Of a stretch of DNA of 64,000 nt, positions 32,320-54,545 are shown piece after piece. Position 1 is the stretch's first letter, and each line of letters opens with the position of its first letter. A program made the translations under genes and the position numbers. A model generated the notes under the pieces. It was given only the letters and a program-made list of their open reading frames with translations, made no database searches and had not been told where the DNA came from. The DNA comes from Chloroflexota bacterium (GTDB taxonomy: Bacteria; Chloroflexota; Dehalococcoidia; E44-bin15), in contig DAOUOW010000001.1 in assembly GCA_030626475.1 (NCBI GenBank), positions 108-64,107 of the forward strand. The letters run 5' to 3'.

Positions 32320-33162
32320 TTAGCGTTTCGCTGTAAATTCTGGCACTGGCAGCTTGGGTTTTTCCTCTGCTGGAGGCGGAGCTACAAGAGACGGCTCTTT
32401 CTTTTTGCGCAATCTCAAAGTTTGTGCCAGCACTGTCCTCTTGAGCAATTGAATAGCCAAGGCGGGGTCCACCCCCTTAGGGCAAGCCTCAGAGCAAGCT
32501 CCGGCAAGGTGGCAAAGCCAAACGCCATGCCCAGAGTCAACTATAGCAGTCCTTTCCCTTACCCCCTCATCTCGACTATCTGCGCAATACCGATAAGCCT
32601 GAGCCAATGACTGAGGTCCTAAGAAGAGCACATCTGTAGCTGAAGTAGGGCAAGCCGCCAGGCATATCCCACATTTCACGCAATAGCTAAACTGCAAGTA
32701 TTCCTCTAGCTCTTGAGGCGACTGGGTATATTCAGCAGTAGGCTCCTCCATCTCCTCACTATCCGAGCGCAGGATGTAAGGCTTTATTGCCTTGTGGCTC
32801 TCAAATAGTGGGATGAGATCAGGGATGAGGTCTTTTATGATGCCATAATTAGGCAGGGACTTGATTTCTACTACATCTTTCCCCAGCTCCTCCACCGGCG
32901 TGTGGCACGCGAGCTTGGGCAAGCCATTAATCAGCATGCCACAGGAGCCACAAATACCCATCCGGCACGAGGTGCGAAAGGCGAGGGTGTTATCTATCTT
33001 TTCCTTGATGTAGTTAAGACCATCAAGCACTGTCATACCTTTGGTGAAGGGGATGACAAACTCCTGCAAATGAGACTTCTCATCACGAGTGGGCTCATAC
33101 CTTTGAACCCTGAACGTCAGTTCTTCCGCAGTTAAACTTTTCTCTTTCTCTGTCATAACCAT
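32320..33162 (-). CDS. sdhB: Succinate dehydrogenase / fumarate reductase iron-sulfur subunit
   Basis: CRMGICGSCGML [2Fe-2S] motif, plus CVKCGICLAACP and CHLAGACSEACP Fe-S motifs. Confidence 0.85.
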   Translation of the reverse strand: MVMTEKEKSLTAEELTFRVQRYEPTRDEKSHLQEFVIPFTKGMTVLDGLNYIKEKIDNTLAFRTSCRMGICGSCGMLINGLPKLACHTPVEELGKDVVEIKSLPNYGIIKDLIPDLIPLFESHKAIKPYILRSDSEEMEEPTAEYTQSPQELEEYLQFSYCVKCGICLAACPTSATDVLFLGPQSLAQAYRYCADSRDEGVRERTAIVDSGHGVWLCHLAGACSEACPKGVDPALAIQLLKRTVLAQTLRLRKKKEPSLVAPPPAEEKPKLPVPEFTAKR

Positions 33163-33167
33163 CTCTC

Positions 33168-33530
33168 CTAGGAATAATAGGCATTAAGCGCAATAAAAGT
33201 TCCATATCCAAAGACGGCAATCCCGATTCCCATCATAATGTAATTAAGCGAACGGGCGATAACAGGCGGCCAAGGTAGCTCCATAAGAACAACCCTCAAA
33301 CCATAAAGCGCGTGGTAAATAGCCACCGCCAAAAGGATAATGTAGAAGCTGGCCCAGCCGGCGCTGGTTGCCCTGTCCATTACACTGCCCCATGATGTTG
33401 GCTCCTCTATATGTACGCCAAAGACGCCAGCGAAATCATCCAACCGTAGCGCTGTGACATGTGCCGCGATAAGGAAAAACACAGCAACCCCGGTAATCAG
33501 CTGTAGAACACGAAAGTAAGATTGACGCAT
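33168..33530 (-). CDS. Succinate dehydrogenase / fumarate reductase membrane anchor subunit (small)
   Basis: 120-aa, 3-TM protein located between sdhC and sdhB. Confidence 0.5.
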   Translation of the reverse strand: MRQSYFRVLQLITGVAVFFLIAAHVTALRLDDFAGVFGVHIEEPTSWGSVMDRATSAGWASFYIILLAVAIYHALYGLRVVLMELPWPPVIARSLNYIMMGIGIAVFGYGTFIALNAYYS

Positions 33531-33539
33531 TGCACACCT

Positions 33540-33983
33540 CTATACTACAAAGTCAATTAGGATAAGGAGCAGAAGAATCGCTCCCAGCGCACCCATTGCC
33601 AATACGATGGGGCGCCTTCGTTGCAGAGCATGACTATAAGGATATATCGGTGGTTTGGGAGCACCTAAGGTGTAACCCAGTTGCTGCAGAATGAGCCTTA
33701 GCCCGTTAAGGGCATGGATGAGAAAGGCGGCAATAACAAGGTACTCCCCGACTGCGAATACCGGGTTCTCAAACAGGCTCATGGTGTCTTCCCAAAGCCC
33801 CTCTCCGCTAATGCGCATACCATTGGCTGTGAGGTGGAGGATGCCGTATAAAATTATGCCGAGCCCGGTCACCCTCTGGAGAGTATAGAGATAGCGCTCC
33901 ACATTATATCTGCCAGCCCATACCCAACCCCAGATACCCAGGTAATTCTTCAACGGTTTCTTCTTCACTTCTGCCACGTTCAT
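33540..33983 (-). CDS. Succinate dehydrogenase / fumarate reductase cytochrome b subunit
   Basis: 147-aa TM protein with His residues, immediately downstream of sdhA. Confidence 0.55.
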   Translation of the reverse strand: MNVAEVKKKPLKNYLGIWGWVWAGRYNVERYLYTLQRVTGLGIILYGILHLTANGMRISGEGLWEDTMSLFENPVFAVGEYLVIAAFLIHALNGLRLILQQLGYTLGAPKPPIYPYSHALQRRRPIVLAMGALGAILLLLILIDFVV

Positions 33984-33986
33984 AGG

Positions 33987-35702
33987 TCAATACTTCCTTT
34001 CTACCGGCTGCCACATCGTAATGGTCATCGGAATATAGTCAAGCCGTGGTCCTTCTGGGGTATAGTAAGCCAAGGTATGTTTGCCCCAATTAACATCGTC
34101 TCTCTGGGGGCAGTCCCTCCGGGAATGAGACCCCCGAGATTCAGTGCGTGCTATTCCTCCGACTACGATCGCTTCTGCTATATCGAGGAGGTTAGCCACT
34201 TCCAAAATATTGAGAAGGTTAGTATTGTACACCCTGCTTTCGTCCTTGACCCGCACCCTCTTCATTCGCTCTCTTAATTCCCTTATTTTCTCTAGCGCCT
34301 TCTCCATCTCCGGACCGGTGCGGAAAACCCCCACCTGACGATCCATGGCGCTTTGCAGTTCGCTTCTGATGACGTAAACGTCTTCCTCGCCGCTCTGATG
34401 GCGGTACTGGTCAAATATGAGCGCCTCCTCCTGACGCACCCTTTCTTGAGAAACCGAAACCAGAGCTTTTTGTTCTCGGGCAAATTTAGCTGCTTTTTCA
34501 CCGGTGATCTTCCCCCAGAGCAAGCACTCAGCAGTGGAATTGGAGCCGAGACGATTTGCCCCATGTAACGAAATACAAGCAGCCTCACCTGAAGCCCAGA
34601 TTCCTTGTATTGGGGTTGCGCCATCGATATCGACATGGATACCACCCATGAAATAATGAGCCGCTGGTCGAATGGGGATAGGCTCATCAATAGGGTCGAT
34701 GAAAGCCAACTTTATCGCCACCTCCCTTATTAAGGGCAGGCGCTCATTGATCTTCGCCGCACCGAGATGGCGCAGGTCTATGTGTAAGTAGTCCAGGCCG
34801 TCAGGTCCTGGGAATCCCCTTCCCTCCTCGATCTCAGTTATCTCGGAGCGAGACACGATATCCCTGGGAGCTGTTTCCTTTCTCTCAGGGGCATACTTTT
34901 CCATAAATCTTTCGCCCTTGTTATTTCTCAGATAGCCTCCTTCACCCCTCGCTGCTTCGGTAATTAGGATGCCGGAGGGTATCAGCCCAGTAGGATGAAA
35001 CTGGACGAACTCCATGTCCTTGATTGGGAACCCAGCCCTGTAGGCCATGGCCAGGCCATCCCCGGTAGCGGTGAGGGAATAAGTGGTAAAACCAAACATA
35101 CGACAGGCACCACCGGTAGCGATAACCAAAGCCTTCGCCCTGATCACGAAAAACTCGCCACTTGTCAAATCCCACACCGTTACCCCTTGAAAGGAATTGT
35201 CGCCCACCAAGATTGAGGTCACATAGCACTCATCATAACGGGTGACAGAGGCATACTTTTGGAGGATATCATAGAGGGTCTGCATCTCAAAGAAGCCGGT
35301 TTTATCGGCGGCGAAAACAGCTCGGTCGAAGGTATGACCACCAAAGGCTCGTTGGTCGATGCGACCATCAGGACGGCGCGACCAGGGGATACCCCAGTGC
35401 TCTAGCTGCAGGATCTCTTGCGGCATTTCTTCGACGAAGCGCTGCACAACATCCTGGTCAGCCAGGAAGTCGCTTCCCCTCACTGTGTCCCAGGCATGCA
35501 GCTCGAAGCTATCGCCCTCTTCGGGGCGCATCATTGCCGCTGTACCGCCTTCGGCACAAACCGAGTGGGAACGCATTAGCTGAACTTTGGAAACGATGGC
35601 AATATCCAGCTCCCCTTTGCTCACCCGGGCTGCCTCAACCGCCGCTCGCAGTCCTGCTATCCCAGAGCCTAAAACTAGCAGATCGTGACTAACACCATTC
35701 AT
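33987..35702 (-). CDS. sdhA: Succinate dehydrogenase / fumarate reductase flavoprotein subunit
   Basis: GSGIAGLRAA FAD-binding motif and RSHSVCAEGG covalent-FAD histidine motif. 571 aa. RBS AAGGGGG. Confidence 0.9.
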   Translation of the reverse strand: MNGVSHDLLVLGSGIAGLRAAVEAARVSKGELDIAIVSKVQLMRSHSVCAEGGTAAMMRPEEGDSFELHAWDTVRGSDFLADQDVVQRFVEEMPQEILQLEHWGIPWSRRPDGRIDQRAFGGHTFDRAVFAADKTGFFEMQTLYDILQKYASVTRYDECYVTSILVGDNSFQGVTVWDLTSGEFFVIRAKALVIATGGACRMFGFTTYSLTATGDGLAMAYRAGFPIKDMEFVQFHPTGLIPSGILITEAARGEGGYLRNNKGERFMEKYAPERKETAPRDIVSRSEITEIEEGRGFPGPDGLDYLHIDLRHLGAAKINERLPLIREVAIKLAFIDPIDEPIPIRPAAHYFMGGIHVDIDGATPIQGIWASGEAACISLHGANRLGSNSTAECLLWGKITGEKAAKFAREQKALVSVSQERVRQEEALIFDQYRHQSGEEDVYVIRSELQSAMDRQVGVFRTGPEMEKALEKIRELRERMKRVRVKDESRVYNTNLLNILEVANLLDIAEAIVVGGIARTESRGSHSRRDCPQRDDVNWGKHTLAYYTPEGPRLDYIPMTITMWQPVERKY

Positions 35703-45546: not shown

Positions 45547-46383
45547 ATGAGCACTATTCTTGGCGTTACCCGATGCGGCAAAATGGAGTTCAGATGGGGG
45601 GAGAAGACCTATATCATGGGCGTGATCAACCTCACCCCCGATTCCTTCGCCGGCGATGGGCTGGGGGGCGATGTTGAGGCTGCGATGGCCCAGGCAAGAC
45701 GCCTAGTGGAGGAGGGGGCTGACATTCTGGATGTCGGCGGTGAGTCCACGCGCCCGGAATCCAGTCCCACAGCAGTGGATGAAGAGCTGCGGAGGGTGAT
45801 ACCGGTGATTGAGCGGTTAGCTGCCGAGGTCAGCGTGCCCGTGAGCATTGACACCTACAAATCGGCGGTGGCGCGGCACGCCCTGGATGCGGGGGCGAGG
45901 ATGATTAACGACGTCTGGGGATTGAGACGCGACCCCGAGCTTGCCTGGGTCGCTGCCGAGGCGGGGGTCCCCATTGTTATCGTGGCCAATCAGCGGGAAA
46001 CAACCTATCAAGAGGTTGTGCCTGAGGTTATGGCCGCCTTGAAGAGTGGCATAAGGCTGGCACTGGATGCCGGGGTAGCCTGGGAGAACATCATCATTGA
46101 CCCCGGCATCGGTTTTGGCAAGACACTGGAGGGAAATCTGGAGCTCATCCACCGCCTCGGGGAGCTTAGGGCGCTGGAGAGACCAATCCTGCTCGGCACA
46201 TCACGCAAATCGATGATTGGCCTGGTGCTAGACCTGCCCGTGGATCAGCGATTGGAAGGCACGGCAGCTACCGTGGCTCTGGGCATTGCCAACGGCGCCG
46301 ATATGGTGCGGGTGCACGATGTCTTGCCCATGGTGCGCGTCTCAAGAATGACCGACGCCATCGTCAGGGGACAAGCGAAATGA
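45547..46383 (+). CDS. folP: Dihydropteroate synthase
   Basis: IMGVINLTPDSFAGDG pterin-binding motif. The start may instead be at M13 (45583). Confidence 0.85.
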   Translation: MSTILGVTRCGKMEFRWGEKTYIMGVINLTPDSFAGDGLGGDVEAAMAQARRLVEEGADILDVGGESTRPESSPTAVDEELRRVIPVIERLAAEVSVPVSIDTYKSAVARHALDAGARMINDVWGLRRDPELAWVAAEAGVPIVIVANQRETTYQEVVPEVMAALKSGIRLALDAGVAWENIIIDPGIGFGKTLEGNLELIHRLGELRALERPILLGTSRKSMIGLVLDLPVDQRLEGTAATVALGIANGADMVRVHDVLPMVRVSRMTDAIVRGQAK

Positions 46384-46913
46384 GGGTGAGGCATCATCTG
46401 CCGCCGGGGCCAGTGACCATTTATCTTGGTCTGGGGTCCAATCTGGGAGACCGAAAGGCAAACCTGGAAAAGGCGCTCCAATTTCTTGGTCAGACGCTCT
46501 CTGTAGAGCAAATCTCCTCCGTCTATGAGACCCAGCCGGTGGGAAACGAGGACCAACCCCTGTTTCTCAATGCCGTTTGTCGTGCCGCCACTGATATCGG
46601 CCCCTTCCAGCTTCTCTCCCTGATTAAGGGGATCGAGGTCGCCCTGGACAGAGTGCCGAGCTTCCCCAATGCCCCCCGCACCATCGACATCGACATCCTT
46701 CTTTATGGCAATCTGGTAATAGAGGCACCAGAACTGGTCATCCCCCATCCTCGTTTGGAGGAGAGGGCCTTTGCCCTTGTTCCCCTGGCTGAGATCGCCC
46801 CCGACCTCATCCACCCCATAAGCAGTCGCAGCATCCAGGAGCTGGCGACCAGGGTTCAGGGAAGGGATGAGGTGGTGAAAGTAGGTAAGCTTGATGATGA
46901 ACTTAGGAAATAA
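46380..46913 (+). CDS. folK: 2-amino-4-hydroxy-6-hydroxymethyldihydropteridine pyrophosphokinase
   Basis: YLGLGSNLGD and QPLFLNAV motifs. Overlaps folP by 4 nt. Confidence 0.85.
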   Translation: MRVRHHLPPGPVTIYLGLGSNLGDRKANLEKALQFLGQTLSVEQISSVYETQPVGNEDQPLFLNAVCRAATDIGPFQLLSLIKGIEVALDRVPSFPNAPRTIDIDILLYGNLVIEAPELVIPHPRLEERAFALVPLAEIAPDLIHPISSRSIQELATRVQGRDEVVKVGKLDDELRK

Positions 46914-46924
46914 AGGGAGACACT

Positions 46925-47893
46925 ATGCCAGAACCCGCGAAGGATAGCGCTGCGGATGCCAGAGCGTCACTCTGGGGGCCTCTAGGCCATGCTATGCGCT
47001 CTCTATACCAATACAGTAAGAGATCGTCGGTTCAGTCCCTTAGAGAATTGGCAGATAGACTATGGGACACTATTGGTCGCATTTGGTTTATGGTAATCAT
47101 ACCCGAGCAATTTTTAATCCACGAGCAAAGCAACTTACGGTTTTACTGGCATCACCTCGTGGCTGCACTGAAAACTGGAACACTAGGATCCACAGACACT
47201 CTAACGGACGATGAAAGAGAAGCATATGAAGCGGCGATGAAAGAATTATACGAAAAAACCGCTAGCGATGTAGAACAGGAGAAGTTATTTGAAGAGTGGC
47301 TCAGCAAGGCTATGCGAGAGAAACCCCACGTCATCGAAATGCTCCAGATGGATGAACCATACAAATCTCTGCTTTATTCAGGATTAATATGGGCATGGAT
47401 ATCTTTTGAGGTGTTCGCTAGCGACTTGTGGGAAGCAGTGGTTAATACGGCTACAGGGAAAGTTAGATCAAGGATACTGCATTCTATTAGTGCTGCCAGA
47501 CCCTCAGTAAAGATAGACCACATTGCAAAATACGATTATGACGTTAGAGGTCACCTAGGAACAATCATGAAAGATAGCTGCGATTTTACGTCATTGGATG
47601 GTATTCAGAAAGCCTATAAGGTGATATTTCCGAAAAGCCAAAGTATTTCAAAGGCTCTAGGCAAGAGAGAGTTACTCGAACTGGAGGCAAGCCGCCATCT
47701 AATCGTGCACCGGTCTGGAATAGTAGATGATGAATTTCTCCGAAGGACAAAACTGAAACTGAAAAAAGGAGATGAGTTGCCTGTCACTGATAAACAGGTG
47801 CGTGATTATTGCACTCTGACCGTGGAAGTTGCGCTTATTCTGCTGGCAGCAGCAGAATCGCTAGTCGGAAGAAAGTCGCCAAAAAATAAATGA
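46925..47893 (+). CDS. Hypothetical protein with low GC and a C-terminal Rx4H (HEPN-like) motif
   Basis: 322 aa. RBS AAGGGAG lies 6 nt upstream. The GC content is markedly lower than in the flanking genes. No family recognised; SRHLIVHRSG carries an Rx4H motif. Confidence 0.5.
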   Translation: MPEPAKDSAADARASLWGPLGHAMRSLYQYSKRSSVQSLRELADRLWDTIGRIWFMVIIPEQFLIHEQSNLRFYWHHLVAALKTGTLGSTDTLTDDEREAYEAAMKELYEKTASDVEQEKLFEEWLSKAMREKPHVIEMLQMDEPYKSLLYSGLIWAWISFEVFASDLWEAVVNTATGKVRSRILHSISAARPSVKIDHIAKYDYDVRGHLGTIMKDSCDFTSLDGIQKAYKVIFPKSQSISKALGKRELLELEASRHLIVHRSGIVDDEFLRRTKLKLKKGDELPVTDKQVRDYCTLTVEVALILLAAAESLVGRKSPKNK

Positions 47894-47916
47894 GTCCTCC
47901 CCAAACCCCCTCTGCT

Positions 47917-48675
47917 TTACCAGGCGATCGAAATCTCTTTGACTACGCCTTCCATGGGCAACAAGTAAAAGTCGGAACAAGAAAATACAAGTTCGAATGT
48001 GATTTGCTTGCCCTTTCTCAGTGTAACTATTTTATCTGAGGAGCAACGACCCATATCCGCATTGCCTACATCAATAAAAACCAGTCCTTGGTCTATCGTG
48101 TTAAAGGCGTTTACGGCATGACCTACATCGTTGTAATAGAAAGCAATGCCCACCCAGGCAGCACGTATCCCCGCTGATTCAGCATTATTATGCAGCATCT
48201 CTGCATAGTCGCCGCAGACAAATATTTCCTCCCTATATGGAATTTCATCTGTCTTATCTTGCCGAAGGAAGTCTTTCAGCTCAGACCAAGTAACGTCAGT
48301 GGCCTCAGGATTATCGCATAATCTTATCTTGTGGCCATCTGCTCCTGTCTGTATGTAAGTGATTCCGTTTTCTCTGGTCTCTACAAACTTGCATTCAAGA
48401 GCAGGACTATGCCCGGGTGTAGGTGTCGGTGTCGGTGCTAGCGAAGATATATGCGAACTTCCACCTTTTTCCTGAAACAATTCTTGTGGGTCAACGATGC
48501 CCTGTGAATATAAAGAGGCCAGGCATAATATGGGAATAAAAACGAGGACAAATAATATCGCTAAAGATGGCCGAACTAGCCTTGCCTTTTTCGTTCTTGC
48601 GAGGGGCCACCCACATTCCGTGCAGAACCTGGCATTTTCGTCAACTTCACTACCGCAACTGGGACACAATCGCAT
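47917..48675 (-). CDS. Hypothetical zinc-ribbon membrane protein
   Basis: N-terminal CPSCG...CTECG zinc ribbon, one TM helix and a TPTPTP linker, then a 150-aa domain with a conserved-looking Cys/His pattern. Low GC. Confidence 0.5.
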   Translation of the reverse strand: MRLCPSCGSEVDENARFCTECGWPLARTKKARLVRPSLAILFVLVFIPILCLASLYSQGIVDPQELFQEKGGSSHISSLAPTPTPTPGHSPALECKFVETRENGITYIQTGADGHKIRLCDNPEATDVTWSELKDFLRQDKTDEIPYREEIFVCGDYAEMLHNNAESAGIRAAWVGIAFYYNDVGHAVNAFNTIDQGLVFIDVGNADMGRCSSDKIVTLRKGKQITFELVFSCSDFYLLPMEGVVKEISIAW

Positions 48676-48945
48676 ATTCGAAACCCGTTTGGCCTTTATC
48701 TCTATCCGCAGATGACTCTAGCATCTTCACAGGGCAAGCACAAGACCCAAAAGTCCTATTAGCCCAGTCCTATCTAACCCGCTATTTCAGACTGTGCAAT
48801 ATTATACCATTTTATACTATTTTTGACAATGCGGGGAGCACGGCTGCGACTTTGGCCATAGCTAAAAGCCATCCTTATCACCGGGCTCAATTCAAAGGGG
48901 CTAAGCCCCGCCCACGCTTCTACAGTTTCTCGGTTTAGGTTATAA

Positions 48946-49344
48946 TTGGTGAAGATAGGGAAGGAGGACTTTGTGTTCGAAGTATCAGTGCGAGAGCACT
49001 TTGATGCCGCGCACTACCTGAGGGGCTACCGCGGGAAGTGTGAGAACCTTCATGGACACCGCTTTCAGGTGATGGTCACGGTGCGGACTGCGGATGTTGA
49101 CGAAATCGGGCTGGCATTTGACTTTGTCGAGCTGAAGAGGCATCTCAGGGAGATTCTGGAGCGCCTGGATCACACCTGCCTCAATGAGGTGCCGCCCTTT
49201 GACAGTATAAACCCCTCGTCGGAAAACATCGCTGCTACCATCTGTAACGAGCTTGAGAAAAGGCTGACCGGGATATCCATCTCCAGCGTCCAGGTGTGCG
49301 AATCCCCTGAGGCTTGTGTCACCTATTTGCCTGAGGATGGTTAG
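48946..49344 (+). CDS. queD: 6-pyruvoyl-tetrahydropterin synthase family protein (QueD/PTPS)
   Basis: CENLHGHRF zinc-binding motif, and EHFDAAHYL. 132 aa. GTG start after GGAAGGAGG. Confidence 0.8.
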   Translation: MVKIGKEDFVFEVSVREHFDAAHYLRGYRGKCENLHGHRFQVMVTVRTADVDEIGLAFDFVELKRHLREILERLDHTCLNEVPPFDSINPSSENIAATICNELEKRLTGISISSVQVCESPEACVTYLPEDG

Positions 49345-50913: not shown

Positions 50914-52143
50914 CTACTGCTCTGCCTTGCTTTCCTGAATCAGACTCTCTCCATATTCCAGGAGCACCTTGCCATCCAGGCGCGTCTTCTTCGAATCCAG
51001 ATAGACCTTGAGCGCCTCCAATGGTGTCATCGCCTCGGCAGACCAGCCTGCCATCCGCGTACGGCGTTCTCGCTCCACTCCCCTGGCGATGGCGGCGATG
51101 AAGTGAGCATCTTTGAGCGCCTTGCGGACCTCCCCCTCCTGCAGCATCCCCTCCAGCCGCTCCGGGATTTTCACCTGAAGGCGCACTACGGCGTCCTTGA
51201 TCTCTCGCTCGCGGCGTTCGATGGCGCGCAGCACTGCCTGGGTGGGGTCTTGCTCCTCGGGGCTGACATCAACCTTGATGGTGAGAAACGGGCGCGCCTT
51301 CACCGCGTGGAAGTCGAAGGACACTTCCCCTTTTCGCTCTATCTCCACCAAGAAGAACCCCTTATCATCCTCCTCCTCGCTGAAGTCGATGCATTGCAGG
51401 CTGCCGGGGTAGACCACCGGCGGATTGTCGGAGAGGACCTGCTTCCTGTGGATGTGTCCCAAAGCAACGTAGTCAAAGGCGGGGTTGGCAACAACGCTGT
51501 GGAGCAGCACGTAGTCGTGGCCCATTATCATGCTCCGCTCCGAACCATACCTGGCATTGGACAGGGAAACATGGGCGGCAAGGATGGCGGGCAAGTTTGA
51601 GTCCAGCGTCTCGACCTCCACCCTGAGGCGCTCGGTCAGTATCTGCTCCAGCCTGTCATTGATCTCATCGAGGGTGAGATTCTTTGTCTCCTCCCTGGAG
51701 AGCAGGGCGCTTCTCCTCGCCCAGGGCAGGGCCACGATCTGGATAACCCCACCCTTTGTTTCCGCGCGGTAAGTCCCGGCGGTATTGGCCACGATAACAT
51801 TTTCAATCTCCAGCGTGCGGAAAATCTCCATCGTTGTGGCGCGGCCGAAGGCACTGGGGAGGTCGTGGTTGCCGATGAGAAGGAAGACGGGGATGCCGCC
51901 CGATGCCAGCCTCCAGATGCGGCGGGCAAACTCTCGCTGGTGGGTCTGGGAGGGCTCGCGGCTCTTGTAAGCATCGCCGCAGAAGAGCACCAGGTCAACA
52001 TCCTGGCTCAGGGCGTATTCCACCACCTCATCGAAGGTGGAGAGGAAGTCGTGGAAGCGCCACGAGAGCCCGGTCTCGGTGTTGACGCCCCCGCTGTAGT
52101 TCTCCACCCCGAGGTGCAGGTCGGCGAAATGAAGGATTCTCAT
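50914..52143 (-). CDS. sbcD: DNA repair exonuclease SbcD / Mre11 family
   Basis: MRILHFADLHLG calcineurin-like phosphoesterase N-terminus, with GDAYKS and GNHD motifs. 409 aa. Confidence 0.8.
   Translation of the reverse strand: MRILHFADLHLGVENYSGGVNTETGLSWRFHDFLSTFDEVVEYALSQDVDLVLFCGDAYKSREPSQTHQREFARRIWRLASGGIPVFLLIGNHDLPSAFGRATTMEIFRTLEIENVIVANTAGTYRAETKGGVIQIVALPWARRSALLSREETKNLTLDEINDRLEQILTERLRVEVETLDSNLPAILAAHVSLSNARYGSERSMIMGHDYVLLHSVVANPAFDYVALGHIHRKQVLSDNPPVVYPGSLQCIDFSEEEDDKGFFLVEIERKGEVSFDFHAVKARPFLTIKVDVSPEEQDPTQAVLRAIERREREIKDAVVRLQVKIPERLEGMLQEGEVRKALKDAHFIAAIARGVERERRTRMAGWSAEAMTPLEALKVYLDSKKTRLDGKVLLEYGESLIQESKAEQ
52093..52143. repeat. 51-bp perfect direct repeat, copy 1 (the native sbcD start region)
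   Basis: gctgtagttctccaccccgaggtgcaggtcggcgaaatgaaggattctcat is identical to 52667..52717. Confidence 0.8.
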
Positions 52144-52173
52144 TGTCTCAAGCGAAGAGAGGCATTATAGGAA

Positions 52174-52406
52174 TTACGTTCGACCGATAGATTGCAAAAA
52201 CTCTTCCTCGGCAATCTCAAGCTGTCTTAGGATGTCGGAGAGCAAGTAACGGCTGATAGTCTTAGCAGGGTGAATGGGAATCGGGGCGCGGCGACAGTCC
52301 CGATGATGAAATATTGCTGACCACCCTTTTGTCGCACCCTCTCGAACCCCAGCGCCTGAAGTCCCCTGATAACTTCTCGAGTTTTAAGTGAGGGTGGCTT
52401 TGTCAT
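52174..52406 (-). pseudogene. hicA: hicA-like toxin gene, apparently frameshifted
   Basis: The ATG overlaps the hicB stop in an ATGA arrangement. The N-terminal half (MTKPPSLKTREVIRGLQALGFERVRQKG) is in one frame. The HicA-like C-terminal half (FHHRDCRRAPIPIHPAKTISRYLLSDILRQLEIAEEEFL) lies in the adjacent frame, switching near an AAAAGGG run. Confidence 0.5.
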
Positions 52407-52615
52407 ACCGCAATAGTAACCTGTCTGGTACCAACTTCCTGCGGGATTTCCTCGCCGCGGTCTTTGCGGTATTCAAGGCAAAGCTCGAGCGCCTCTTTAA
52501 TATTAGCCAGGCATTCTTCATAGGTCTTGCCCTGGGCGTGGGCTTCCGGAATAAGAGGGCAGCTAGCTATATAGAATCCGTCGGGTGCCTTCCTGATGAT
52601 GACAGTGTATTCCAT
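52403..52615 (-). CDS. hicB: HicB-family antitoxin (UPF0150)
   Basis: MEYTVIIRKAPDGFYIASCPLIPEAHAQGKTYEECLANIKEALELCLEY is a HicB N-domain. The six-frame ORF continues upstream in-frame to 52717, where it borrows the duplicated first 17 codons of sbcD. Confidence 0.65.
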   Translation of the reverse strand: MEYTVIIRKAPDGFYIASCPLIPEAHAQGKTYEECLANIKEALELCLEYRKDRGEEIPQEVGTRQVTIAV

Positions 52616-52666
52616 ACCCACCTCTACAGCGTATATTATAGCACAGTTGCGGTGAAGGTGCCCAGA

Positions 52667-52717
52667 GCTGTAGTTCTCCACCCCGAGGTGCAGGTCGGCG
52701 AAATGAAGGATTCTCAT
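52667..52717. repeat. 51-bp perfect direct repeat, copy 2 (duplicated sbcD 5' end fused to hicB)
   Basis: Identical to 52093..52143, and includes the sbcD ATG plus 16 codons. Confidence 0.8.
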
Positions 52718-52721
52718 GCGG

Positions 52722-53108
52722 TCAATCCAAAAGCCTCTTCTCGCCCTCTATGGTCTTGATGTCCGTTATATCCTGGGTGACCTCAAGGCAACCGATGTAG
52801 CTCCCCGACTTGTCCCTGACGGGGAAGTAGCGTATCAATATCATCCGCCCCTTGAGGTTGATCCAGAACTGGGCAACATCCCTTTTCCCTGCCTTAAAAT
52901 CGTCAAGTATTTGCTGTACCTTATGCACGCTTTTCTGGGGATGGCAGTTCTGGACCTTCATGCCGATGACCGAAGGGGTCCTCCTGAAGATGCGCGCCTC
53001 TCCCTTGCTGTAGTACATTACAATGTCGTCCTTATCGACAAAGGAGCATTCAATCGGCAGCGCATCGAAGATGTTGGCGATGGTCTCAGTTGACAGTTTG
53101 TCCAGCAT
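52722..53108 (-). CDS. PAS-domain protein (stand-alone)
   Basis: 128 aa with a PAS-like core (FVDKDDIVMYYS...NCHP...LEVTQDIT). Confidence 0.55.
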   Translation of the reverse strand: MLDKLSTETIANIFDALPIECSFVDKDDIVMYYSKGEARIFRRTPSVIGMKVQNCHPQKSVHKVQQILDDFKAGKRDVAQFWINLKGRMILIRYFPVRDKSGSYIGCLEVTQDITDIKTIEGEKRLLD

Positions 53109-53447: not shown

Positions 53448-54545
53448 TCACAGAATTCTTCCAAACCGAAACAGAGTGCCCACGGTCATGACTTTATTCT
53501 GCAACTCAACAGACTTACCTGTGAGCACATCCTCGAAAATGTATCTATCAATGTTGTTTTCACCAATTAGGTCTGTACCCACCCGCCTAAGTTCAACTAT
53601 TATAAATAGTGCCCTTCGCACAATATCTTCCAGTTGAAGCACGTTAGAGATAAACCACTGCCTAGCTTCGTTCCTAGTCCTTCTTGCACCATGTACCAAG
53701 TTACTTCGGTGCCCGTACGCCTCCTTGATGAAACCGACAGTTTTGTACAGATTTGCGCTACCAAATTCCAATATACAGCTTGTCCTATATGCCAACTTGA
53801 AACGAATACTTTCTGGACCTTGGCTAAATAAAGACTCGAGGCAGGTGATAAGGTTCAGACCCCTCTCAATAGCATCAGCCTTGTAAAATGAGTCTCGGAA
53901 TATCTCCATGGGAACCTGATAAGGAGCTAAATCCGCAGTAGATACTTCATCTGCCAACCTAGTCAGAAAATCGCAGTCCTGCTCTGTAAGTTTAACTATA
54001 ACGCTCTCCCCATAAGGCTCAGGCATTGGCTGATCAAGCCCGCTCCGGGATACCGCATTTCTATCGCCCCCTTGAAGTTTAGCAGGGAGCATTATGATTC
54101 TCGCTTTCGTGCCAAGCCGCAGTGGTAGGATGGCTCTTTCGAGTTCATCTCTTGCTTGACCACGGAAGACGCTCAGTGCAGCAGCGCCAGTAGCAACTAC
54201 CGATCCCGACCCAGATACAGCAACTCCCCCGGTATCTCCTTCGAGTGCACCACTCAGGCTATCCACTTCAATGTCAACAAGGTATTTGACAACATCTCTA
54301 TCAATTTGTCGCTGTCCTCCAACATCTTTGTACAAAGTAATATTCGCACCCGGGCTATGCCCAAAATCCTCCCCCGCGACGATCGGATTTTTGAAAACCC
54401 TGCCATCCCCCAAATACAGCTCATTAATGGCGGGAGGCAATTCTATTCCGAAGAGAGTTCCTATCAATGTCAGCCTCACCAAACCGCTCCCCTCTACGTT
54501 ATTCCAATAACAGCCCCGGGCCAGATTCAACGTCTCTCCACTCAC
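53448..54545 (-). CDS. Hypothetical protein with low GC, translationally coupled to glyQS
   Basis: 365 aa with no recognisable motif. The start overlaps the glyQS stop in an ATGA arrangement. GC is lower than in the neighbouring genes. Confidence 0.45.

Follow-up and report, generated by a model that had tools for sequence, protein, structure and literature searches.

A variable folK-PTPS junction in a Chloroflexota lineage carries a gene for a probable HEPN protein and an independently gained membrane protein gene

In the DNA analysed here, a stretch of 64,000 nucleotides from a Chloroflexota bacterium (hereafter, the window), the junction between folK and a PTPS/QueD-family gene is an accessory-gene hotspot of this lineage, where an insertion, its mosaic character and the independence of the two genes it contains (X and B) can be directly observed. 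The explanation that best accounts for the locus as a whole, to which we assign a probability of around 0.6, is that of a hotspot with two independent cargo genes, X encoding a probable HEPN RNase and B being a later and unrelated gain. The accessory-gene islet is of a familiar kind; what stands out is the large unannotated protein family to which X belongs.

An insertion site within a folate operon

The elements of the locus, with the evidence for each, are the following:

45547-46383, forward strand: folP, dihydropteroate synthase (Pfam Pterin_bind, 1.2e-78; GC 0.605, GC3 0.71)
46380-46913, forward strand: folK, HPPK (Pfam HPPK, 5.5e-38)
about 46885-46913, forward strand: left boundary of the variable segment, the last ~5-10 folK codons (tails differ by cargo)
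46914-46924, forward strand: folK-X spacer of 11 nt, AGGGAGACACT, containing the Shine-Dalgarno sequence GGGAG (sequence)
46925-47893, forward strand: gene X, 322 aa, all-helical in the model (open reading frame, AF2, profile search)
47917-48675, reverse strand: gene B, 252 aa (Pfam Zn_Ribbon_1, 8e-8; GC3 0.43)
48801-48829, reverse strand: promoter-like site for B, TTGTCA-17-TATAAT with extended TG (11 of 12 consensus positions)
48903-48972, forward strand: right boundary, a block of ~68 nt with the PTPS promoter-like site and RBS, GGAAGGAGG (blastn breakpoints, six-configuration alignment)
48973-49344, forward strand: PTPS/QueD-family gene, 123 aa (PF01242, 4e-39; TIGR03367, 100 bits vs a cutoff of 89.25)

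The ancestral operon order is folP-folK-PTPS, with folP as the first gene and PTPS as the third, and in the window the distance from folK to PTPS is now 2,059 nt. The initial annotation had proposed that a low-GC segment of foreign composition (46925-48940) splits folP-folK from the PTPS/QueD gene, and base composition, synteny and the identities of the flanking genes all bear this out. The 1-kb windows over 47001-49000 (GC 0.438-0.461) are the lowest among 127 (mean 0.547, sd 0.030; about -3.6 sd), making this the deepest GC trough of the stretch. By segment, GC is 0.56-0.60 in folP and folK, 0.45 in X, 0.455 in B and 0.46 in the spacer at 48676-48945. The compositional signal resides at synonymous sites: GC3 is 0.43 in both X and B, and 0.64-0.79 in eight of the nine neighbouring genes measured, the short Trm112 gene giving 0.56. 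Homologues of X in place in relatives do not match their surroundings in composition either, but keep an aberrant GC of 0.443-0.448. As for synteny, 13 more distant Chloroflexota/Dehalococcoidia genomes (L008-L018, L020, L022; HSP gaps ranging from a small overlap to ~50 nt) have PTPS directly next to folK, and in three further distant genomes the two genes lie no more than 160 nt apart; direct adjacency in at least 13 distant genomes means that the window holds a true insertion site. The start of PTPS is most likely the GTG at 48973, as in all relatives, which corrects an earlier call of TTG at 48946. Both inserted reading frames are as they had been described, a 322-aa X and a convergent 252-aa zinc-ribbon/TM protein B, with 23 nt separating their stop codons.

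Six cargo sets were found at this one junction among the window and its close relatives:

window: folK-X-B-PTPS
L001-4: folK-X-HTH17-PTPS
L006: folK-X-HTH17-Lar-45aa-PeriplaBP-PTPS
L089/90: folK-B-PTPS
L091: folK-526aa-350aa-B-PTPS
L088: folK-B-protease-PTPS

The HTH gene of L001 and L006 resembles excisionase/MerR-type regulators of mobile elements (PADLOC mad1, 9.5e-8; Pfam MerR_1/HTH_17), and the remaining cargo includes a homologue of the anti-restriction protein Lar and a trypsin-like protease resembling the protease domains of defence systems. Low-GC accessory and defence-like genes are common at variable hotspots, and the locus bears three marks of a genomic islet: its relatives have an empty site, the boundaries stay identical while the cargo changes, and the composition is atypical.

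Both edges of the variable segment could be placed. On the left, the C-terminal tail of folK varies with the cargo configuration (...DDELRK*, HGELSK*, EAENV*, KVTR*, RAKDVQDIGSS*). On the right, the ~68-nt block is conserved in the six configurations, blastn breakpoints fall at 48903 and 48913, and a promoter scan located the PTPS promoter-like site (TCTACA-16-TATAAT) at 48919-48946; an Rfam scan of the region from 44 to 52 kb, aimed at any riboswitch or ncRNA in the spacer ahead of PTPS, gave no match. X starts 12 nt past the last base of the folK stop codon with its own RBS, just as the initial annotation had it, and this 11-nt spacer and its RBS are conserved in L001 and L006, that is, in three lineages including the window. 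Neither a promoter nor a terminator was predicted in the spacer, so the fol transcript probably includes X; its co-transcription with folK is plausible from the sequence. The promoter-like sequence of B belongs to the B cassette and is conserved ahead of this gene in both L089 and L091.

The mechanism behind the hotspot is not accounted for by an integrase, a tRNA gene or flanking repeats. No tRNA genes were found within the window, att-like direct repeats at the island borders were only short and at chance level, and none of the six cargo configurations contains an integrase or recombinase, only L001 and L006 having an excisionase-type HTH gene.

Gene X and its relation to HEPN domains

X gave no match against Pfam, NCBIfam, PADLOC, PHROGs or the sequences in PDB. 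An exhaustive profile search recovered 1,998 representatives at E<=1e-3, i.e. about 2,000 protein clusters, mostly from uncultured soil and sediment bacteria, and this family is unannotated, with no Pfam, NCBIfam or PADLOC model. On average its genes are 4.5 points lower in GC than the contigs that carry them, and their neighbours are ArgG-like, ScpA-like, kinase, glycosyltransferase and other genes, never fol genes. No neighbour family occurs in more than two of 33 non-redundant loci, which rules out a conserved partner gene. A search by peptide patterns in 185,579 representative genomes returned no relatives of X, and a second open reading frame of the window with an Rx4H motif (53448-54545) was discarded as a member of the family (hhalign probability 0.4%).

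The AF2 model obtained from 78 family sequences, which supersedes a first one built from seven (pLDDT 65), is all-alpha, with a pLDDT of 92.7 and a pTM of 0.88. The parts of X on which its assignment turns are these:

47267-47869, forward strand: predicted HEPN-like core, residues ~115-315 (DSSP of the model; best-conserved part of the family; counterpart of the stretch that gives sub-threshold HEPN_RiboL-PSP matches in members)
47408-47410, forward strand: Glu162 (codon GAG), in a W-x-x-F-E motif within the long helix 143-175 (invariant in 78 sequences)
47693-47710, forward strand: R257-H-L-I-V-H262 (Rx4H motif), at the C-terminal end of helix 248-263 (alignment, model, codons)

In the model, the core consists of helices 115-139, 143-175, 248-263 and 289-315, with a 72-residue insert (176-247) after the second of these and a loop with a short helix between 248-263 and the long last helix. 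Residues W158, E162, G212, R257, H262 and D268 are invariant among the 78 sequences, which share ~20-30% identity with X, and the invariance of R257 and H262 recurs in a C-terminal sub-alignment. The residue following the arginine is H or N in 77 sequences and S in the other one. In HEPN domains, which are four-helix up-down bundles, the acidic residue of helix 2 typically has an Ex3[KR] context and a position near the motif in space; the context of Glu162 is not Ex3[KR]. The RHLIVH motif noticed initially is indeed present, at residues 257-262, and the suggestion then made that it recalls HEPN nucleases can be weighed against the published description of these domains, in which the motif ends helix 3, a polar residue follows the arginine, helix 2 carries an acidic residue and an insert separates helices 2 and 3 (PMC3710099). 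The model and the alignment agree with that description in the position of the motif at a helix end, the polar H/N and the insert, and Glu162 may be the counterpart of the acidic residue. In addition, when 24,736 Pfam models were searched with the 78 members, the only recurring families were two HEPN ones, HEPN_RiboL-PSP (PF18735; 6/78, best 1.1e-3) and HEPN_Cthe2314 (PF18730; 2/78). The matches to PF18735 are all under the gathering score (12.8-19.3 vs 28.4 bits), as are those to PF18730; they cover 125-146 residues per member, and the four longest of the five read in detail are collinear over profile positions ~13-162 of 191, spanning the Glu helix through the Rx4H motif. The invariant motif, its helix-end position and these recurrent sub-threshold matches lead us to regard X as a probable solo RNase of the HEPN superfamily and of Abi/toxin type, on the basis of the alignment and the predicted structure. 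The suggestion thus stands as to the motif, its setting and the kind of profile matched; it does not extend to a profile match above threshold or to a fold match with a solved HEPN structure. X itself has no HEPN match in Pfam at E<=1, a whole-chain Foldseek search of the model against PDB gave nothing significant (the sole HEPN chain was Csm6, with E=1.7 and TM 0.14), and PDB profile searches with the full family or with the C-terminal domain alone returned nothing relevant.

These negative results, along with the lack of sequence relatives in PDB, are points in favour of a rival reading, in which X would not be a nuclease but some other all-helical protein (a scaffold, a sensor, or a ligand- or nucleic-acid-binding protein), its Arg, His and Glu residues would bind a ligand and its likeness to HEPN would be convergent or superficial. 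Some HEPN-like domains are in fact non-catalytic (PMC3710099). The history of the gene would also suit a non-toxic protein: between X and its homologue in L001, dS is 0.65, near the 0.38-0.59 of the flanks, and dN/dS is 0.27, values indicating that X has been inherited vertically under purifying selection during a long and stable stay at one locus (dS ~0.6); a domesticated housekeeping role would fit such a stay as well. However, HEPN-like domains without catalytic function have usually lost their Rx4-6H motif (PMC3710099), and in this family R and H are invariant at ~20-30% identity, the polar residue after R is of the catalytic type, and both recurring Pfam models are HEPN ones with collinear matches. 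We consider this rival reading unlikely.

In another reading, X would be the toxin of a toxin-antitoxin (TA) pair; HEPN toxins are common in such systems (PMC3710099). The antitoxin would then be the small HTH_17/MerR-type gene that follows X at a distance of 400-520 nt in L001-4 and in L006, and its replacement by B in the window would have left an orphan, possibly inactive toxin. This HTH gene is 96-100% identical between L001-4 and L006, vs only 81% for X. Nevertheless, a gap of 400-520 nt is far from the typical arrangement of TA operons, the HTH gene looks like a regulator of mobile elements and does not recur across the 33 X-family loci, and X in the window, where the HTH gene is missing, retains all the invariant residues and the signs of purifying selection. 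Nor was any adjacent, co-oriented antitoxin of the HEPN-MNT or type II kind found conserved across those 33 loci, and in the window neither the folK-X nor the X-B interval contains a small gene. That X is the toxin of such a pair is in our opinion very improbable.

Gene B and the separate histories of X and B

B has an N-terminal CxxC...CxxC zinc ribbon and one TM helix (residues 37-55, Kyte-Doolittle hydropathy 2.8), followed by a PT-rich linker and a C-terminal domain (residues ~95-252). A candidate catalytic triad is formed by C154 and H186, conserved in at least 90% of 37 sequences, and D202, present in all of them. Pfam recognises only zinc ribbons in B itself; among the 37 members, Gln_amidase (7/37, best 7e-4) and DUF553 (3/37) were matched, all below threshold, and a PDB profile search with the family gave nothing relevant. 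B is predicted from its sequence to be anchored in the membrane, with the zinc ribbon on the cytoplasmic side and a Cys-His-Asp domain of the papain/transglutaminase-like type on the extracytoplasmic side, and to be functionally unrelated to X.

The initial annotation had taken X and B for a single horizontally acquired module; such a module might comprise e.g. a toxin and a membrane effector inserted in one event. In its favour are the adjacency of X and B, their convergent orientation with only the 23 nt between the stops, and their common aberrant composition (GC 0.45, GC3 0.43). Synteny and the flank tree contradict it, and we give it hardly any credence. At the same junction, L001-L004 and L006 have X but lack B, and L088-L091 have B but lack X. 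The flank tree is (L001,(window,(L089,L091))); X is present in L001 and the window, and the window shares B with L088, L089 and L091. This distribution implies different times of acquisition: as read from these sequences, X is the older gene, common to the window and the basal relative, and B was gained later (its dN/dS is about 0.5). Moreover, none of 33 other X-family loci has a B-like neighbour, and B has its own conserved promoter-like site. Least credible of all is a recruitment of X to folate/pterin metabolism or its regulation, an idea derived from its position within, and probable co-transcription with, folP-folK and favoured by the conserved spacer and RBS and the retention of X over dS ~0.6 under purifying selection, but at odds with the foreign codon usage of X, with the unrelated genes that adjoin its family elsewhere, and with the persistence of folP-folK-PTPS without X in L088-L091, which are sister lineages, and in every more distant relative.

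Proposed scheme and comparison with known systems

In the scheme we favour, that of a hotspot with two independent cargo genes, interchangeable low-GC cargo fills the gap between the last folK codons and the ~68-nt PTPS promoter block in the close clade of the window. X would have been acquired first and then inherited vertically, probably being transcribed through read-through from folP-folK, and B would have arrived later with its own promoter. The C-terminal half of X would most likely be the HEPN domain, and its helical N-terminal half a regulatory or sensing part. HEPN RNases act in a metal-independent manner and leave a 2',3'-cyclic phosphate. By analogy with characterized HEPN enzymes, X probably has RNase activity, and Arg257 and His262, aided by Glu162, would constitute a metal-independent endoribonuclease site. 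X would most likely work on its own, as an RNase of the abortive-infection/toxin type that is normally held in check. This defence or toxin role is a putative one: PADLOC-DB v2 defence models matched neither X nor B (0 families), family members gave only weak PADLOC matches (e.g. PDC-M34B, 4/78, best E=1.7e-3) and none was found on annotated plasmids, on phages or in IMG/VR, so the family has no independent link to defence or mobility.

A broader and more speculative proposal, which we regard as possible but rather doubtful, is that the X family is a clade of solo HEPN ribonucleases, both new and widespread, whose members typically settle immediately behind housekeeping genes and in the same direction (behind folK in the window, behind ArgG-like and ScpA-like genes elsewhere). 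By borrowing operon transcription, they would tie the expression of an immunity or toxin function to an essential operon and make the gene hard to silence or lose, and the folK-PTPS junction would be a lineage-specific defence islet with no visible recombinase. Should X be a HEPN RNase, its family would form a large branch, so far without annotation, within a superfamily that is central to toxin-antitoxin, abortive-infection and CRISPR-associated immunity. The branch occurs mostly in uncultured bacteria of soil and sediment, and the defence repertoires of these have been little explored. The junction also offers a clean natural case of accessory genes repeatedly colonising the interior of a biosynthetic operon, where PTPS retains a dedicated promoter-like block and the newcomer X appears to ride the operon transcript. 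A profile of the X family could be added to annotation resources.

Defence and accessory-gene hotspots between conserved core genes are known from the pan-genomes of E. coli and Pseudomonas. The folK-PTPS junction shares with them a fixed pair of core genes, an empty site, alternative cargo, sharp boundaries, and the presence of an excisionase-type HTH, a Lar homologue and a trypsin-like protease among the cargo. It differs in its location, inside a biosynthetic operon and not beside a tRNA or integrase gene, in having no visible recombinase or att repeats, and in that no cargo is a recognised complete defence system. With respect to B, the papain-fold glutamine deamidases (PF15644) and the transglutaminase-like DUF553 (PF04473) are the most recurrent matches of its family outside zinc ribbons, and B has Cys, His and Asp in the same order (VCxDFAExL ... 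GHAxNAF ... GLVYID). Here, however, the matches are sub-threshold and the domain would be displayed outside the membrane on a zinc-ribbon/TM anchor.

Among HEPN families, RiboL-PSP-HEPN (PF18735) is the sole curated one matched repeatedly by the X family, with which it shares the Rx4H motif and the polar residue after R. It is defined by a fused endoRNase L-PSP domain or an operon with ParB (PMC3710099). In contrast, X and the 78 members lack the L-PSP domain, the ParB operon is absent, X instead has a helical N-terminal extension of ~110 residues, and scores reach at most 19.3 bits, vs the gathering score of 28.4, with X itself unmatched. This family is a distant relative of AbiD/AbiF (Anantharaman et al. 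2013, PMC3710099), and close parallels to X may lie in the single-gene HEPN abortive-infection proteins AbiD/AbiF (Pfam Abi_2), AbiJ and AbiU2. X differs from these in that neither Abi_2 nor any PADLOC Abi model matches it or its family and in the absence of the family from the plasmids and phages searched, and it is not known to confer phage resistance. AbiD/AbiF proteins are similar in size to X (~300-350 aa). Like these systems, X is a stand-alone gene with no conserved partner, sporadic between close relatives and AT-rich with respect to its host, both here and family-wide, and it has a conserved Rx4H motif, the nearest Pfam relative of its family being itself related to AbiD/F (PMC3710099).

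Two low-GC genes in an ancestral folate operon

In the window, folP and folK are separated from the PTPS/QueD-family gene, third gene of the ancestral operon, by two convergent open reading frames, here termed X and B.

Genes at the folK/PTPS junction
folP, upstream flank: Pterin_bind, 1e-78
folK, upstream flank: HPPK, 5e-38
46925-47893, + strand: X, ORF of 322 aa
47917-48675, - strand: B, ORF of 252 aa
PTPS/QueD-family gene, downstream flank: PF01242, 4e-39; TIGR03367, above cutoff (100 vs 89.25 bits)

The initial annotation had placed both ORFs in a sharp drop of GC content, and coordinates, GC windows and GC3 values all agree with this. The 1-kb windows over 47001-49000 (0.438-0.461) are the minimum of the 127 analyzed (mean 0.547, sd 0.030), and GC3 is 0.43 in both X and B, as compared to 0.64-0.79 in eight of nine neighbouring genes measured, the ninth being the short Trm112 gene (0.56). 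Since the anomaly is found at synonymous sites, it reflects foreign codon usage and not amino-acid composition. A mild dip (0.486-0.495 at 32.5-34 kb) within 32320-35702 corresponds to ordinary genes and not to an islet, their translations indicating a succinate dehydrogenase/fumarate reductase flavoprotein, two small membrane subunits and an Fe-S subunit.

As had also been proposed, X starts 12 nt past the folK stop with a ribosome-binding site of its own, GGGAG, in the 11-nt spacer AGGGAGACACT. Conservation of this spacer and an empty terminator prediction make co-transcription of X with folP-folK plausible. No terminator-like hairpin was predicted in 47894-47916, between the stop codons of X and B, and with these only 23 nt apart, transcripts of the fol operon plus X and of B would collide as antisense. 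The PTPS gene most likely starts at GTG 48973 (123 aa, as in every relative) and not at TTG 48946.

That an insertion splits the folate operon was borne out by comparison with other genomes. A scan of one genome per species with FolK as query (top match 64%) indicated an uncultured bacterium of Chloroflexota/Dehalococcoidia-like affiliation. folP-folK-PTPS are contiguous in 13 more distant genomes (L008-L018, L020, L022), usually followed by a Trm112-like gene, with folK and PTPS matches ranging from slightly overlapping to around 50 nt apart; in three further genomes the distance was 160 nt or less. The ancestral state is thus a compact folP-folK-PTPS operon, and the 2,059 nt between folK and PTPS in the window are derived. 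Although the NCBIfam label of the third gene is QueD (TIGR03367), its operonic position with folP-folK in at least 13 Chloroflexota genomes suggests a role in folate synthesis, possibly as a PTPS-III-type FolB substitute.

X as a probable member of the HEPN superfamily

X itself matched nothing in Pfam, NCBIfam, PADLOC, PHROGs or PDB sequences, and only six close homologues were obtained by word-indexed search of a 5.8-billion-protein database. An exhaustive profile search gave 1,998 cluster representatives at E<=1e-3 (952 of them at <=1e-10), most of which are unannotated proteins of 300-330 aa with the best match over residues ~140-315. Alignment of 78 members, 74 of which share 19-31% identity with X, left only six invariant columns: W158, E162, G212, R257, H262 and D268. 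R257 and H262 are the ends of RHLIVH (residues 257-262), the Rx4H motif that had raised the possibility of a HEPN domain. The consensus around it is LEA-x-R-[H/N]-L-I-V-H-R-x-G-x-V-D, with W-[T/S]-x-F-E some 95 residues before. AlphaFold2, run on this alignment, yielded a confident, all-helical model (pLDDT 92.7, pTM 0.88) with Glu162 within a long helix (143-175), an insert of short helices (176-247), and the motif at the end of helix 248-263, after which come a loop and a long terminal helix (289-315). By the published definition of catalytic HEPN domains (PMC3710099), Rx4-6H closes helix 3, its Arg is followed by a polar residue (N/D/H), helix 2 bears a conserved acidic residue, and an insert separates helices 2 and 3; sequence and predicted structure of X largely agree with this definition, Glu162 lying outside the typical Ex3[KR] context.

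When 24,736 Pfam models were scanned against the 78 members, the only two recurrent ones were both HEPN: HEPN_RiboL-PSP (six members, best E=1.1e-3) and HEPN_Cthe2314 (two members). Four of the five RiboL-PSP matches read in detail are long and collinear, starting ahead of the Glu helix and ending 3-4 residues beyond the motif His; in the family member P0108, for instance, profile positions 13-162 of 191 are covered by residues 138-274. These matches are weak but coherent as sequence evidence. With the invariance of R257 and H262 and the position of the motif in the model, they lend support to the HEPN proposal, and X is probably a distant member of the superfamily, nearest to the RiboL-PSP-HEPN/AbiD-AbiF branch. 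It falls below the curated thresholds of PF18735 (RiboL-PSP-HEPN) and has neither the L-PSP fusion nor the ParB operon typical of that family. The most fitting description is a new family of a known kind, as yet unannotated; none of the findings is categorically new. In a Foldseek search of the model against BFVD, the only matches with probability 1.00 were A0A8S5LJP3 (E=0.035) and A0A8S5NVI2 (E=0.11, rmsd 4.3 A over 171 columns), uncharacterised proteins of metagenomic phages, where X-like folds may therefore exist.

If X works as characterised HEPN enzymes do (PMC3710099), His262 would activate the ribose 2'-OH, with Arg257 stabilising the transition state, and RNA cleavage would be metal-independent. 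The family is a solo gene: among 33 non-redundant metagenome loci, no neighbouring gene family occurs in more than two. The few recurring neighbours are housekeeping-looking (ArgG-like, ScpA-like), upstream and on the same strand, and the remaining contexts are unrelated to each other. With crude ORF calling, 21 of 28 loci had their upstream neighbour in the same direction. The GC content of family genes is on average 4.5 points under that of their own contig, and lower by more than 3 points in 12 of 22. Members of the family in unrelated bacteria lie directly 3' of, and co-directional with, ArgG-like (L098, L101) or ScpA-like genes (L100, L104), so named from reading N-terminal sequences, which echoes the folK-X arrangement; the gap upstream of the X-family genes in these four loci depends on the start codon chosen (51-69 nt, or -1 to 186 nt in an ATG-only recount). 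As a solo, sporadic, AT-rich gene whose HEPN motif is of the catalytic type, X fits best with a single-gene abortive-infection or toxin-type RNase in which the helical N-terminal half would be the regulatory part; half of a two-gene toxin-antitoxin pair does not fit the solo status. The defence- or toxin-related function suggested earlier is thus putative, and a direct defence link was not obtained: no PADLOC model matches the family and no member was found on annotated plasmids, phages or in IMG/VR.

B and its separate history

B has an N-terminal CxxC...CxxC zinc ribbon (Pfam 8e-8). A single strong transmembrane helix follows at residues 37-55 (Kyte-Doolittle hydropathy 2.8), and the basic stretch in front of it implies N-in orientation. 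A Pro/Thr-rich linker leads to a C-terminal domain with an invariant D202 and nearly invariant C154 and H186 (VCxDFAExL...GHAxNAF...GLVYID). Besides the zinc ribbon, the top recurrent Pfam matches among 37 family members, all sub-threshold, were the papain-fold Gln_amidase (7/37, best 7e-4) and the transglutaminase-like DUF553 (3/37). This layout, the three residues and these matches indicate that B is probably a hydrolase or amidase of the papain/transglutaminase-like type, anchored in the membrane and facing outward. B also has a strong promoter-like site to itself (48829-48801), which is conserved in the relatives' loci L089 and L091.

A single two-gene module, as initially envisaged, is not supported, since X and B occur apart at the junction and their histories differ. 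In a neighbour-joining tree of flanking genes, rooted on L008, the topology is (L001,(window,(L089,L091))). X occurs in L001 and the window but not in the L089/L091 group, and B occurs in the window, L088, L089 and L091 but neither in L001 nor in L006. Most simply, the clade ancestor already had X, which was lost once, and B arrived later. In agreement with this, dS between window and L001 is similar for X (0.65) and for the flanks (0.38-0.59). The dN/dS values correspond to purifying selection on X (0.27) and more relaxed selection on B (around 0.5). X homologues share the position but keep the aberrant composition (GC 0.443 in L001, 0.448 in L006), so that the matching composition that would have spoken against the initial reading was not found. 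Nothing links X and B functionally.

Gene turnover at the junction and elsewhere

Metagenomic contigs of close relatives align collinearly with the window for ~21 kb (80-92% nucleotide identity), and six gene sets, that of the window included, occur at exactly this junction.

Configurations between folK and PTPS
window: folK-X-B-PTPS
L001-L004: folK-X-(74-aa HTH_17/MerR gene)-PTPS
L006: folK-X-HTH-(Lar-like, 74 aa)-(45 aa)-(periplasmic binding protein)-PTPS
L089/L090: folK-B-PTPS
L091: folK-(526 aa)-(350 aa)-B-PTPS
L088: folK-B-(625-aa trypsin/Tricorn-like protease)-PTPS

All six converge sharply around 68 nt 5' of the PTPS start, and this conserved block holds a promoter-like TCTACA-16-TATAAT and the PTPS ribosome-binding site. 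On the left, homology fades in the final 5-10 codons of folK, whose C-terminal tail varies with the cargo. Neither a tRNA gene nor an integrase nor flanking repeats were detected at the hotspot. Part of the cargo has a mobile-element or defence flavour. The HTH_17/MerR-type gene (L001:11384-11608, L006:1613-1837), of an excisionase/MerR type, matches PADLOC mad1 (9.5e-8); it is 96% identical between L001 and L006, as compared to 81% for X and around 83-86% for flanking housekeeping proteins relative to those of the window, which suggests recent exchange or strong constraint. L006:1837-2061 encodes a homologue of the restriction-alleviation protein Lar (PF14354, barely reaching the cutoff), and L088:947-2824 the 625-aa Tricorn/PD40/trypsin protease, whose trypsin domain resembles those of the defence proteins RT-Protease, LmuA and HamA (PADLOC, down to 4.6e-20). 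The 526-aa and 350-aa proteins of L091:8757-11530 had no Pfam or PADLOC match.

Two other variable sites were observed in the window.

Features at the other variable sites
52093-52143 and 52667-52717: 51-nt perfect direct repeat
52227-52406, - strand: hicA-like ORF, named from reading of the sequence
52403-52717, - strand: hicB-like ORF, named likewise
53448-54545, - strand: 365-aa ORF with R-x4-H and a polar residue after R

The repeat brackets a ~574-bp insertion within 52093-52733, absent from L001, and duplicates the 5' end of a Mre11-like phosphoesterase gene, so that the hicB-like ORF appears to begin with the first 17 codons of that gene. The 365-aa ORF forms a second low-GC islet (~0.45-0.47) between the genes of a class II tRNA synthetase and a YggU/PF1765-like protein; its position is taken by a 200-aa unknown protein in L001, a 156-aa gene in L091, and 156-aa, 151-aa and NYN-nuclease genes in L089. 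It gave no match in a PDB sequence search, and a relationship with the X family was rejected (hhalign probability 0.4%).

The initial reading of the locus is thus partly supported: the observation is confirmed, and the insertion and the HEPN-like nature of X are supported, but the single two-gene module is not. Of most value are the HEPN-like family, which is large and uncharacterised, and the locus as a clean example of accessory-gene turnover within an operon. Accessory and defence-gene hotspots between core genes occur in well-studied bacteria, and the folK/PTPS locus behaves in the same way, although it differs from them in having no visible recombinase and in lying inside a biosynthetic operon.
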